The notes beneath the pieces are model-generated. The model was not told the DNA's origin, ran no database searches, and saw only the letters and a program-made list of their open reading frames with translations. From a virus (Duplodnaviria > Heunggongvirae > Uroviricota > Caudoviricetes), in IMG/VR virus record IMGVR_UViG_3300045988_019953, positions 1 to 42,581 of that record: a stretch of DNA of 42,581 bases; one strand, 5' to 3'. Position 1 is the first letter of the stretch. Each line of letters starts with the position of its first letter. Positions 22,773-24,972 of this stretch are shown in pieces. The position numbers were made by a program, and so were the translations under genes.

Positions 22773-23003
22773 TTACTCATCAATATTGCTTCGGTATTCC
22801 CGTAACTTCTCCAGACTTTCAATTGCTTCCGCTAAGTCGGTTCCTGTGTCCTTGTGCCCCCGCAAGCCCATACATAATAGCTTCTTCAATGCGTGCTGTA
22901 GCGCCGGGTCCCGGATATCGAAGGCGCGTAGCACATCGTAAACGTCTACAGTCATAGTGCTGCCGTGAGTGTTTGTCATTGTGCGGTTGTATTTTGAAGT
23001 CAT
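22773..23003 (-). CDS. Hypothetical protein (76 aa), last gene of the minus-strand island
   Basis: Track ORF downstream of the island HNH gene. Confidence 0.5.
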   Translation of the reverse strand: MTSKYNRTMTNTHGSTMTVDVYDVLRAFDIRDPALQHALKKLLCMGLRGHKDTGTDLAEAIESLEKLREYRSNIDE

Positions 23004-23012
23004 CTCTAAGCC

Positions 23013-23513
23013 CTATTTATAACCGTTGTTGAATGTTGTCAGCCCGTGGTTTATGTGGAATTTATTGGCTACGGACATGTAAATTCTTTCCGCGAAAGCG
23101 TCCTCTATTCTGTCAAATGTTTTACTAATCTGCTTACCGTTGACAACGGCATACGCTCTCCACTTAGTTTCTCCTTTCCGCGCCACGCCAGTAACTCCAG
23201 ATGTATTATCTTTGCGCCTTTTCACGTTAACCATGTTGTCCCTTCTTGATTTGCAGGACAGGTTTTCAATTCTGTCATCACATGTATCATGGTTAGTGTG
23301 GTCTATGACAAATCCTTTTGGAATCTTGCCGGAGAACATCTCGTACACCACCCTCGACCTTTTAAACTTACGGTTGCCGAACATGACGTACCAATAGCCG
23401 TTTTTACACAAACTCCCGGCAACATCCCCTACATTCACATCGTTACGGCGACATGATTTGACTTTCCAGTATAGGACGCCGTTTTTGTAGCTAAAAACCT
23501 CACTCCAGTCCAT
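23013..23513 (-). CDS. HNH homing endonuclease (HNH plus AP2-like region), copy 1 of 4
   Basis: Motif GFVIDHTNHDTCDDRIENL...NMVNVKRRKDNTSGVTGV shared with ORFs at 34358, 36269, 39992. Confidence 0.8.
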   Translation of the reverse strand: MDWSEVFSYKNGVLYWKVKSCRRNDVNVGDVAGSLCKNGYWYVMFGNRKFKRSRVVYEMFSGKIPKGFVIDHTNHDTCDDRIENLSCKSRRDNMVNVKRRKDNTSGVTGVARKGETKWRAYAVVNGKQISKTFDRIEDAFAERIYMSVANKFHINHGLTTFNNGYK

Positions 23514-23528
23514 CCTTTCACCTACATT

Positions 23529-24683
23529 TTAGTATGTTGATTCGGGGTTTATATCCCGCAGCATTTCAACAGGTATACTTATGCGGGACACCTCACCGTA
23601 TCGCTTATGGTATGTAATCACATTTGCGCTTCTACCGGAATAATAACCTCCTTTACTAGAATACTCATCTTTAGCGGCTAATGTCTGATGTTGCTCGACA
23701 ATTAGAAGATTAGTCTCTTTAACCGCCCTGTGATGAAGGTGGCCTGTATGGACGTAGGTGAACTTACACTGCCCGTACATCTCCCGATACTTACCGATTA
23801 TAGACTGCTCTACCTTAGCAAAGTTAGAGCAATGCCCATGGTGCGCCGAAATCATACAATCCCCGAACTTGTACGCATAATACGGCGATACCTCCCGGTT
23901 AACCTCAACACGAGGCTCGTTTGTGTATACCTCATAGAACATCTCTCTGAGCCACAGAGAAGAACTAAGGTCGTGGTTACCCTCGCAGATAAGAAGTTTA
24001 ACCTTTTTGTGTTTTCGCAAGCACAGCGAAACCGCCAGCTTTATAACCTTAATAGCTGTACGTATCATTTTAAACAAGCGACTATCCGCTGAAAGAATAT
24101 GACCGCTCATAGGGGTCATTGCCTTCATGCCGTCGTAGTGCATCTGGTCGCCTAAGAAATTAATGATACATTCACCACTCTGCGGACTCATGCAAACCGC
24201 ACTGTTGAACCAGTCAACAGCAAGAGATTCCGCGATTGTGGTGTCGTAGTCGTCTCCGCCTTCTTCTTGACACGCCAGCATCCCGATGTGATGGTCAGTT
24301 ATTGTGTAAAGATTTAATAAGTCGTCATCTGTGCCATTTTTGGCCAAAGTGACAGGCTTAAACCTGGGTAAATCTTTTTTCATCTCATCCACAACGGCTT
24401 TCATCAACTCAACCTGACGTTCGGCGTCAGTGTCAGTCTTAACCCATTGCAGTTTAGTGTTGCCGAACTCGTCCACAAGTGACGACGTGCCTTTAATCTT
24501 GTAACCGTCAGGGACGAGGTGGCTAACGTCGCGCCCGTGGCCCACGCCTTTCTTTGCCAGCTTCGCTTTACGGATACGAATAACGCGGTCTGAGATGCCG
24601 TATTTACGGGCGATATCGATATTCTTCATTCCGGCGTTCAATTCTTCCTGTAACTGTTCGTCGGTTATTTTCTTCCGGGCCAT
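23529..24683 (-). CDS. Calcineurin-like metallophosphoesterase with N-terminal HTH
   Basis: Ordered motifs TDHH, GDQMHYDG, EGNHD, HHGH, GHLHH; N-terminal NIDIARKYGISDRVIRIRK is HTH-like; RBS GAGGA. Confidence 0.75.
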   Translation of the reverse strand: MARKKITDEQLQEELNAGMKNIDIARKYGISDRVIRIRKAKLAKKGVGHGRDVSHLVPDGYKIKGTSSLVDEFGNTKLQWVKTDTDAERQVELMKAVVDEMKKDLPRFKPVTLAKNGTDDDLLNLYTITDHHIGMLACQEEGGDDYDTTIAESLAVDWFNSAVCMSPQSGECIINFLGDQMHYDGMKAMTPMSGHILSADSRLFKMIRTAIKVIKLAVSLCLRKHKKVKLLICEGNHDLSSSLWLREMFYEVYTNEPRVEVNREVSPYYAYKFGDCMISAHHGHCSNFAKVEQSIIGKYREMYGQCKFTYVHTGHLHHRAVKETNLLIVEQHQTLAAKDEYSSKGGYYSGRSANVITYHKRYGEVSRISIPVEMLRDINPESTY

Positions 24684-24721
24684 GCTTACGTCCTCGTGTT
24701 TAGGATTTGTCCTATACTAGC

Positions 24722-24913
24722 TTACTTCTCGTTAACATTCGAGTTGCACGCCCAGATTAAAATAAATACCCACGGCAGTAGAATCCAACCAAGAAACAGG
24801 TTAGCCATGAATATCGCCAACTTCGCTTTATGATTACGGAAGTACGCAACCAGGAAAGGCGCAAAATAGGCGAGTAGTGCAAACAGAATTAAGGAAACTG
24901 GTAAACTGGACAT
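24722..24913 (-). CDS. Small membrane protein (two TM segments)
   Basis: ATG 24911-24913 after AAGGGG; hydrophobic throughout; track lists an upstream ATG 24928. Confidence 0.5.
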   Translation of the reverse strand: MSSLPVSLILFALLAYFAPFLVAYFRNHKAKLAIFMANLFLGWILLPWVFILIWACNSNVNEK

Positions 24914-24943
24914 TTTAAACCCCTTCATTGTTGGTGTAAGTGA

Positions 24944-24972
24944 ATAGTACCCTATTATATTGGGGTGCGCAA
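24944..24972 (-). promoter_or_regulatory. Early-type promoter on minus strand (TTGCGC-17-TACTAT) with dyad AATAG-N4-CTATT (24943-24956)
   Basis: 23-mer identical to 15540-15562; drives the four-gene island. Confidence 0.55.

Follow-up and report, generated by a model that had tools for sequence, protein, structure and literature searches.

The phage T5 protein A1, a predicted pre-early metallophosphatase, is necessary and sufficient for degradation of the host chromosome (bioRxiv 10.64898/2026.04.02.716235), and Gp48 of mycobacteriophage A10ZJ24, an early metallophosphoesterase (MPE), disrupts host DNA (PMC12287305). Phages T1 and TLS degrade the chromosome of their host as well, and the gene responsible is not yet identified (PMC11447400). 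Here we describe a block of four genes read from the minus strand of the virus record IMGVR_UViG_3300045988_019953, all 42,581 nucleotides (nt) of which were analysed and are referred to as the window. In the order in which they are read, the genes encode a predicted superinfection immunity protein (Sii), a 384-amino acid (aa) protein composed of a helix-turn-helix (HTH) domain, a beta-hairpin and an MPE domain, an HNH_3 endonuclease, and a 76-aa protein. The second of these products belongs to PHROG 704, a family that includes T1 ST16, K1G gp22, Ent3 gp23 and Era103 gp26 and that carries the name 'DNA repair exonuclease'. T1 mutants defective in host-chromosome degradation were reportedly described in 1981. 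We propose, at a probability of roughly 40%, that the 384-aa protein, called the MPE below, is a DNA nuclease for host-DNA breakdown and nucleotide salvage. The gene is a mosaic in which a Kagunavirus N-terminus (residues 1-96) is joined to a Jerseyvirus catalytic domain.

Results

The MPE gene occupies positions 23529-24683 of the minus strand, and its product matches PHROG 704 over the full length (E 1.6e-150). The protein begins with a tri-helical HTH of Kagunavirus type (residues about 8-44; 24552-24662, minus strand), continues with a hairpin/helix module (residues 61-103) and ends with a catalytic domain of Jerseyvirus type (residues about 119-378; 23550-24329, minus strand). An earlier reading of this DNA, made from its letters alone and called here the sequence-only reading, had proposed structure prediction as a check. 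The model used was built from 80 sequences and replaced one built from eight (pLDDT 71, weak Foldseek matches); it shows an MPE fold preceded by three N-terminal helices at residues 8-16, 21-28 and 32-44. The ordered motif set of the calcineurin-like MPE superfamily is present (D130xH132, G178D179xxH182xD184, G235N236H237D238, H281H282G283H284 and G314H315xH317H318), as is the four-layer alpha/beta-beta/alpha fold. The sequence-only reading had listed these motifs as DHH, GDxxD, GNHD, HHGH and GHLHH, of which all stand except the second, which is really GDQMHYD (178-184), that is, GDxxHxD. Conservation was judged in two alignments, one of 48 and one of 80 relatives, whose identity to the window MPE spans 31-93%. 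The residues D130, H132, D179, H182, D184, N236, H237, D238, H282, G283, H284, G314, H315 and H317 are invariant or at least 90% conserved, and S67 and W80, located in the beta-hairpin ahead of the catalytic domain, are invariant. Therefore, the active site is not degenerate; degeneracy was the outcome that had been named beforehand as one that would speak against a phosphoesterase.

The proposed N-terminal HTH fusion is weak in the window sequence by itself (GerE, E 0.047; FixJ, E 0.005) and clear at the level of the family: among 80 relatives, the Pfam models HTH_1, HTH_50, GerE, HTH_23 and Sigma70_r4_2 matched 19, 9, 8, 8 and 6 proteins, respectively. Homologues from Campylobacter phages lack the HTH and keep the hairpin and the MPE domain. 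Domain databases say less about the catalytic part. The Metallophos models PF00149 and PF12850 gave no match to the window MPE even at E 0.1, and scans of the protein against Pfam, NCBIfam and PADLOC returned no usable match. The K1G orthologue is sub-threshold in the Metallophos models (18.8 bits against a cut-off of 21.5, and 22.1 against 27), and weak matches were found in 10 (PF00149) and 7 (PF12850) of the 80 relatives. The PHROG 704 MPE family falls outside current Pfam models. The nearest solved folds to the structure model appear to be small phosphodiesterases and the Mre11/SbcD/PolD-DP1 nucleases, and not protein phosphatases. A fold search of BFVD returned many phage MPEs, none of them characterised, with T5 A1 outside the top 50. 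Protein identity of the window MPE is 93% with Jerseyvirus protein cluster P0001 and rises to 97.9% with the protein of phage XY1.

The family was found by tblastn in 2,002 of 50,697 phage records (about 4%), which include phages of Escherichia, Klebsiella, Salmonella, Vibrio, Campylobacter, Rhodobacter and Rhizobium. It occurs in Guernseyvirinae, Drexlerviridae, Dhillonvirus and some Autographiviridae, and it is reported to be persistent in 508 of 522 Drexlerviridae (PMC13164509). An exhaustive profile search gave 1,408 clusters at 50% identity with E<1e-30. Judging from these searches, the family is large and appears confined to phage-like sequences.

The genes that accompany the MPE in other phages are informative about its substrate. 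The order MPE, polynucleotide kinase (PNK)-type HAD phosphatase, and P-loop protein resembling deoxynucleoside monophosphate (dNMP) kinases recurs in five lineages: Kagunavirus K1G, the Autographiviridae Era103 and LIMEzero, Jedunavirus VLCpiM12a and Webervirus SmellyBerry. A 5′-3′ exonuclease and endonuclease VII stand ahead of it in both Era103 and LIMEzero, and an ATP-dependent DNA ligase follows it in Era103. The same adjacency is reported to be family-wide in Drexlerviridae (PMC13164509). Other MPE contexts hold PhoH, the beta clamp, a T5-type dNMPase, ribonucleotide reductase (RNR), ThyX, a MazG-like dGTPase, DNA polymerase or DNA ligase; in Campylobacter phage F336 a Holliday-junction resolvase and then a DNA ligase come before the MPE, and in a metagenomic phage NinB and NinG do. 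In T1, Dhillonvirus, Vibrio and Rhodobacter phages, the MPE lies where the replication genes end, beside the lysis cassette. Because the HTH is fused across the family, the PNK/kinase-like order is recurrent and the remaining contexts are those of DNA and nucleotide genes, the probable substrate is DNA. The public annotation of a close relative, P0101, reads 'Nuclease MPE ... DNA binding protein'. Elsewhere in its genome, the window phage encodes a recombination pair formed by a PD-(D/E)XK exonuclease and a Gp2.5-like single-stranded DNA-binding/annealing protein; therefore, the MPE would not be needed as a recombination exonuclease. A nuclease for the breakdown of host DNA, coupled to nucleotide salvage, is the role that we favour. 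The wider proposition that PHROG 704 is the nuclease by which T1-like phages, and by extension Guernseyvirinae, degrade and recycle the host chromosome is put forward more tentatively.

Several points weigh against the role that we favour. The literature search found no assay of any PHROG 704 member, and the family name is a prediction. The signal for homology to T5 A1 is weak: hhalign against a 40-sequence A1 alignment gave a probability of 29.6% and an E value of 5.7e-4, and the alignment was colinear over motifs II-V only with greedy settings. Searches of solved structures with the single sequence and with two profiles gave no significant match to the catalytic domain. The window lacks genes for the PNK-type phosphatase and the kinase and consequently encodes no salvage partners, and degradation of host DNA in Guernseyvirinae is not documented in the literature found. 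The HTH could serve autoregulation and not substrate binding. With respect to timing, the sole transcriptome located, that of phage K1B4 (PMC12645636), mentions only sii from the block and classes its peak as late, on a scale of 110-120 min that spans several infection cycles, so that this class is uninformative either way. Finally, DNA-end repair would explain the neighbouring ligase, endonuclease VII and PNK genes equally well.

This last point leads to the possibility, which we consider real and still doubtful, that the MPE is a nuclease by which the phage processes the ends of its own DNA and repairs them, in the manner of Mre11/SbcD or of the MPE from Pseudomonas putida. The MPE would trim blocked or damaged ends, the PNK-type 3′-phosphatase and the kinase would restore the 3′-OH and 5′-P, and a ligase would seal the product. 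The row of exonuclease, endonuclease VII, MPE, PNK, P-loop protein and ATP-dependent DNA ligase in Era103 agrees well with this scheme, as do the resolvase-ligase-MPE row of F336, the NinB-NinG-MPE row of the metagenomic phage, the weak profile matches to SbcD and to 'Nuclease MPE' (PDB 6NVO), and the source name of P0101. Motif II of Mre11 is GDLFH, to be compared with GDxxH in the MPE. However, the MPE has no capping domain, and no Rad50/SbcC-like open reading frame (ORF) that could act as its partner was found among the large non-structural ORFs of the window or the annotated neighbourhoods of relatives. In addition, the P-loop neighbour matches a dNMP-kinase PHROG (phrog_139, E 6e-46 for the K1G protein) and not polynucleotide kinase, the window and most Jerseyviruses have neither PNK nor ligase beside the MPE, and the phage already has its exonuclease/annealase pair.

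That a PNK-type HAD phosphatase and a kinase-like P-loop protein repeatedly lie next to the MPE would also suit the healing of RNA ends, in which the MPE would act as a 2′,3′-cyclic phosphodiesterase and, with the phosphatase and the kinase, repair tRNAs cut by anticodon nucleases, in analogy with T4 Pnkp/Rnl1 and with the MPE domain of bacterial Pnkp. MPE domains are capable of this activity, as lambda phosphatase and Clostridium thermocellum Pnkp illustrate. Nonetheless, no RNA ligase was found in the contexts examined, the ligase of Era103 being annotated as an ATP-dependent DNA ligase; the HTH suits DNA rather than tRNA; and the kinase-like neighbour matches dNMP kinases. The window, moreover, has neither of the two partners, and we regard RNA end healing as quite improbable.

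The gene between those of the MPE and the 76-aa protein (23013-23513, minus strand) encodes a free-standing HNH_3 homing endonuclease of 166 aa. Its match to Pfam HNH_3 is well above the cut-off (58.2 bits against 24.8, E 6.1e-16), which bears out the HNH endonuclease of the sequence-only reading, and it matches phrog_99 (E 5e-50) and carries the PADLOC label 'homing endonuclease'. The 42.6-kb genome holds four HNH_3 genes, the three paralogues lying at 34358-34855, 36269-36763 and 39992-40489, all on the minus strand. These paralogues are 32-36% identical to the HNH of the block, and they adjoin helicase and DNA polymerase genes.

Comparison with relatives located the junctions of the mosaic. 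Over residues 1-96, the MPE and the Kagunavirus allele P0013 are about 97% identical, and from about position 24380 onward, a region that comprises the MPE N-terminus, sii and the promoter region, the DNA is 93-94% identical to that of K1G and Bas74. The segment 23000-24400, which includes the HNH gene and the 286 catalytic residues of the MPE, is 89-98% identical to Jerseyvirus Ent3. Identity to Ent3 is 90-95% in the MPE catalytic domain, peaks at 98% at the HNH/MPE junction and falls away from that junction; in the neighbouring tail tube gene it is only 69%. Bas74 differs from the window essentially by the 23000-24400 segment, and in it the MPE and 76-aa genes abut, with the HNH absent from their junction. 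Thus, among close relatives the HNH is present or absent at a fixed intergenic site, and its flanks show the pattern of co-conversion. From these sequence patterns, homing of the HNH with co-conversion of its flanks most likely carried the Jerseyvirus catalytic half into Kagunavirus. Phage XY1 has the same recombinant MPE as the window, followed directly by a chimeric ORF (L004 3996-4559, minus strand) of 187 aa, annotated 'calcineurin-like phosphoesterase', in which the first ~60 residues of an HNH are joined to the last ~145 of a Kagunavirus-type MPE. This HNH::MPE ORF looks like a recombination scar.

The block is the standard leftward operon of Jerseyvirus and Kagunavirus and is already annotated. 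It was found in the same slot in the Kagunaviruses K1G, Bas74, Ro145clw, XY1 and BUCT823 and in the Jerseyvirus Ent3. At the DNA level, the stretch from the MPE to the 76-aa gene has matches in 382 phage records; 115 of the 382 cover at least 80% of it and therefore have the same order of MPE, HNH and 76-aa genes. Sii and MPE are constant at this position across the two genera, and the content past the MPE varies. K1G has there a PNK-type HAD phosphatase (Pfam HAD_PNKP, E 6.7e-20) and the P-loop protein mentioned above, Bas74 has only the 76-aa gene, Ro145clw has an HNH, the 76-aa gene and a second HNH, and Ent3 has the order of the window plus an Ant/Rha gene. In more distant relatives the slot between the tail tube and chaperone genes holds other cargo: a minus-strand gene for a 120-aa protein with a signal-peptide-like N-terminus (L024 5725-6087) in Cornellvirus Shemara, and, in Shewanella phage 3/49, minus-strand genes for a protein of 129 aa and a hydrophobic one of 60 aa that is probably a membrane protein. 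The MPE orthologue of Shemara lies at another locus (L026 5670-6803; 53% identity, E 5e-151), flanked by head-morphogenesis and spanin genes, and is again on the minus strand with a terminator of its own. Cornellvirus had seemed to be devoid of the MPE when 80% of the Shemara genome was considered, a conclusion overturned by this orthologue in the first 9 kb.

These comparisons modify the view of the block as an accessory island. The block does have its own promoter and terminator and an orientation that opposes the surrounding late genes, and the variable cargo past the MPE, together with the unrelated cargo of distant relatives, agrees with that view. On the other hand, Sii and MPE are fixed in two genera. 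Presence among close relatives is patchy for the cargo past the MPE and not for Sii and MPE, and the MPE is retained elsewhere in Cornellvirus. The sequence-only reading had stated that conservation of the island in the same position across related phages, with the phosphoesterase required for replication, would count against it; the first half of this is what comparison with relatives showed. As for the second half, the CRISPRi-ART study (PMC11879866) covers no Kagunavirus, and the BASEL (PMC11990801) and Avs/STAND papers are silent on the MPE gene. Taken together, the slot appears to be a cargo site, but the MPE in it seems to behave as a conserved gene of the subfamily and not as a patchy moron.

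The same evidence bears on the substrates first suggested for the MPE, namely host signalling nucleotides or phosphoproteins. Under that suggestion, the MPE would be an early counter-defence phosphoesterase that destroys cyclic mono-, di- or oligonucleotides of host signalling or dephosphorylates host proteins. A block with its own host-type promoter that adjoins an exclusion gene, and a slot whose cargo varies in distant relatives, would be in keeping with such a function. However, the family conserves the fusion to a DNA-binding HTH, PADLOC gave no match for the MPE, and the neighbours are genes for DNA and nucleotide metabolism and not anti-defence clusters. Furthermore, the MPE is near-universal in several phage families (PMC13164509), unlike typical anti-defence genes, which are patchy. 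The conserved HTH fusion and the DNA/nucleotide-metabolism neighbours indicate that the suggested substrates are probably wrong, and counter-defence is an unlikely role for the MPE.

The candidate promoter of the block (24944-24972, minus strand) is of the sigma-70 type, with a -35 TTGCGC (24972-24967), a 17-nt spacer and a -10 TACTAT (24949-24944). The equivalent in Jerseyvirus Ent3 is TTGCAT, 17 nt and TATTAT. A consensus promoter scan of the window made no call at this site; nevertheless, the promoter-like hexamers and their spacing are kept in Kagunavirus and Jerseyvirus, in agreement with the initial proposal that the block has its own promoter. A perfect TATAAT, carried by Kagunaviruses, lies within the spacer at 24959-24954. 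At the other end of the block, an intrinsic terminator was called on both strands at 22749-22768, between the tail tube gene on the plus strand and the block on the minus strand, as had been anticipated. It has the sequence AAGGCCCC-TTTC-GGGGCCTT, a GC-rich stem of 8 bp with a 4-nt loop, and a T-run on the plus side.

Upstream of the block promoter there are two further elements. A hairpin, GCGGG-AACCA-CCCGC followed by TTTT (25031-25013, minus strand), lies just upstream of it, and an inverted repeat, the dyad GTGTGC...GCACAC (24976-24988 / 24999-25011), abuts the -35. The whole region 24976-25031, between sii and the tail chaperone gene, is nearly invariant in six phages of the two genera, and it is possible that it acts as an operator or an insulator. 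The conserved dyad raises the question of whether the MPE is mainly a transcription factor, with an HTH that acts on this divergent promoter region and an MPE domain that is a sensor or an inactive scaffold. That its HTH is of the GerE/sigma-4 type, and that the mosaic allele retains the HTH of the backbone though the catalytic half was exchanged, would both be explained in this way. However, the invariance of the metal-binding and catalytic residues in relatives as little as 31% identical argues for an active enzyme and against a scaffold, and what the Campylobacter homologues lack is precisely the HTH. We consider a mainly regulatory function very improbable.

The first gene of the block, sii (24722-24928, minus strand), encodes the T4 Imm-like superinfection immunity protein, 68 aa long as an ORF. 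The protein matches Pfam Imm_superinfect (PF14373; 47.6 bits against a cut-off of 27.9, E 1.6e-12) and phrog_1039 (E 6e-23). There are two in-frame ATGs, at 24928 and 24913, and a good Shine-Dalgarno sequence, AAGGGG, precedes the one at 24913 only. Public annotations of the length disagree (63 aa in K1G, 68 aa in Bas74), and the true start is probably the second ATG, 24913, which gives 63 aa. The two hydrophobic spans of the 63-aa form (residues 3-26 and 32-57) and the match to Imm_superinfect give substance to the 'small membrane protein' of the sequence-only reading.

The last gene (22773-23003, minus strand) encodes a small conserved protein of 76 aa that matches phrog_2452 (E 2.4e-36), aligning to positions 150-220 of the 235 in the profile. 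In several PHROGs, of function not assigned in PHROG, only the C-terminal part is matched. The protein is a free-standing version of a domain with which longer proteins of other phages end. Homologues were found in 774 phage records. Bas74_0021, also a stand-alone gene, is 100% identical, and Shewanella phage 3/49, a phage without the MPE, has a homologue in its early region. In Salmonella phage SE1 (Nonagvirus; L016 1919-2674), the domain is the C-terminus of a 251-aa hypothetical protein, the gene for which sits between those for QueE and an amidotransferase in a 7-deazaguanine DNA-modification cluster. The idea that the 76-aa ORF is a truncated remnant of the K1G ATP-binding (P-loop) gene at the same position was rejected because BLASTP showed no similarity between the two, the protein is 100% conserved in Bas74, and it is found without the MPE.

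The window is a complete-looking siphophage genome of 42.6 kb, Kagunavirus-like (Guernseyvirinae). Its closest DNA relatives are E. coli Kagunaviruses, 88-93% identical in pieces, and no record covers more than 80% of the queries. All four minus-strand ORFs that had been read originally are present, separated by intergenic gaps of 9, 15 and 38 nt, and a plausible Shine-Dalgarno sequence precedes each. One flank of the block is the tail tube protein gene (21572-22744, plus strand; Pfam Phage_tube_2, E 1.4e-35). The other consists of the tail assembly chaperone genes (25080-25496 and 25529-25861), followed by a 761-aa ORF (25839-28124) where the annotations of relatives have the tape measure gene. 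In the DNA polymerase A ORF (37801-39999, minus strand), residues 444-537 match an 'endonuclease' PHROG, phrog_93 (E 7e-15); this segment may be an inserted domain, or else the PHROG may be mixed.

Discussion

The block in itself is ordinary, as it is annotated in hundreds of phages of Salmonella and E. coli, including many that have been studied with therapy or biocontrol in view. What matters is the HTH-MPE enzyme family, uncharacterised and present in about 4% of sequenced phage genomes. Depending on the pipeline, its members are labelled 'DNA repair exonuclease', 'serine/threonine phosphatase', 'DNA polymerase II small subunit' or 'oxidoreductase'. The function of the MPE bears on annotation and, possibly, on the activity by which T1-like phages degrade host DNA and on generalised transduction by therapy phages. 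Furthermore, the window offers a clean example of a putative homing event in which an endonuclease moved half a neighbouring gene between phage genera.

A mechanism can be outlined for the block. Transcription of the operon would start at a host-type promoter, run leftward, opposite to the late genes, and end at the bidirectional terminator. Sii, a predicted two-helix inner-membrane protein, would keep later-arriving phages from delivering their DNA. In the MPE, the functional core of this scheme, the HTH and the beta-hairpin would hold a binuclear-metal phosphodiesterase on DNA and make of it a nuclease, the most likely job of which would be DNA breakdown, chiefly of the host chromosome, feeding phage DNA synthesis. 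In relatives, the MPE may work with the adjacent PNK-type 3′-phosphatase and dNMP-kinase-like protein, both of which the window would have lost. The HNH would be a selfish homing endonuclease that renders no service to the operon and whose homing most likely brought the Jerseyvirus-type catalytic half of the MPE gene into a Kagunavirus backbone.

Comparison with described systems places the components of the block as follows. T4 Imm shares with Sii the Pfam family PF14373, above the cut-off, and two transmembrane helices, a likeness drawn from sequence only. The HNH of the block resembles phage homing endonucleases of the HNH_3/AP2 type, such as T1 ST15, in its domain, its intergenic insertion, its presence/absence polymorphism, the paralogues in the same genome and the tract of high identity; here too, the likeness comes from the sequences. 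Regarding the MPE, the classical phage MPE is lambda NinI, which belongs with the PPP Ser/Thr phosphatases and is the source of the name 'putative serine/threonine protein phosphatase' in Ent2 and Ent3. The PPP signatures GDxVDRG and GNHE and a PPP-like fold are absent from the window MPE.

The Pseudomonas putida MPE (6NVO), a Mn-dependent ssDNA endonuclease from an Lhr-MPE-ligase repair cluster, is cited in the annotation of P0101. It is a small stand-alone MPE nuclease, and its genes for end healing and ligation are neighbours comparable to those of the phage MPE in Era103 and F336. However, only the GNHD region matches the window MPE (E 1.5), and the bacterial enzyme has about 216 aa and no HTH. 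Identity of the window MPE to Mre11/SbcD and PolD DP1 is only 12-15%, with a profile link at E 0.5 or worse. Mre11/SbcD have a capping domain and a Rad50/SbcC partner, whereas the extra parts of the window MPE are N-terminal only and its binding to DNA would presumably be through the HTH. The absence of the capping domain and of a Rad50/SbcC-like gene is the reason why the MPE is not filed as Mre11/SbcD.

Around motif III, T5 A1 and the window MPE share the sequence NHDLxxSxWL, and the order of the HGH and GHxH motifs is common to both. A1 differs in its length of 556 aa and its long unrelated middle region, and BLASTP aligned one segment of 17 residues (E 0.007). Among relatives of A1 of about 530 aa, P0463, P0465-P0467, P0469, P0493 and P0505 have an N-terminal HTH (HTH_23, HTH_38, HTH_7 or CENP-B-type); therefore, the A1 family includes HTH-plus-MPE architectures. 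Homology between the window MPE and A1 beyond the level of the superfamily is taken here as a lead only.

The closest described group is PHROG 704, members of which are named 'winged helix-turn-helix domain-containing protein' or 'metallophosphoesterase', among other names, at NCBI. The window MPE has the same architecture and the same motifs as these proteins, and it differs from them as a recombinant allele. If our reading of the MPE is correct, PHROG 704 would be a third, independent-looking group of phage MPEs that shred the host genome, beside T5 A1 and Gp48, and one in which the nuclease is directed to DNA by its own HTH.

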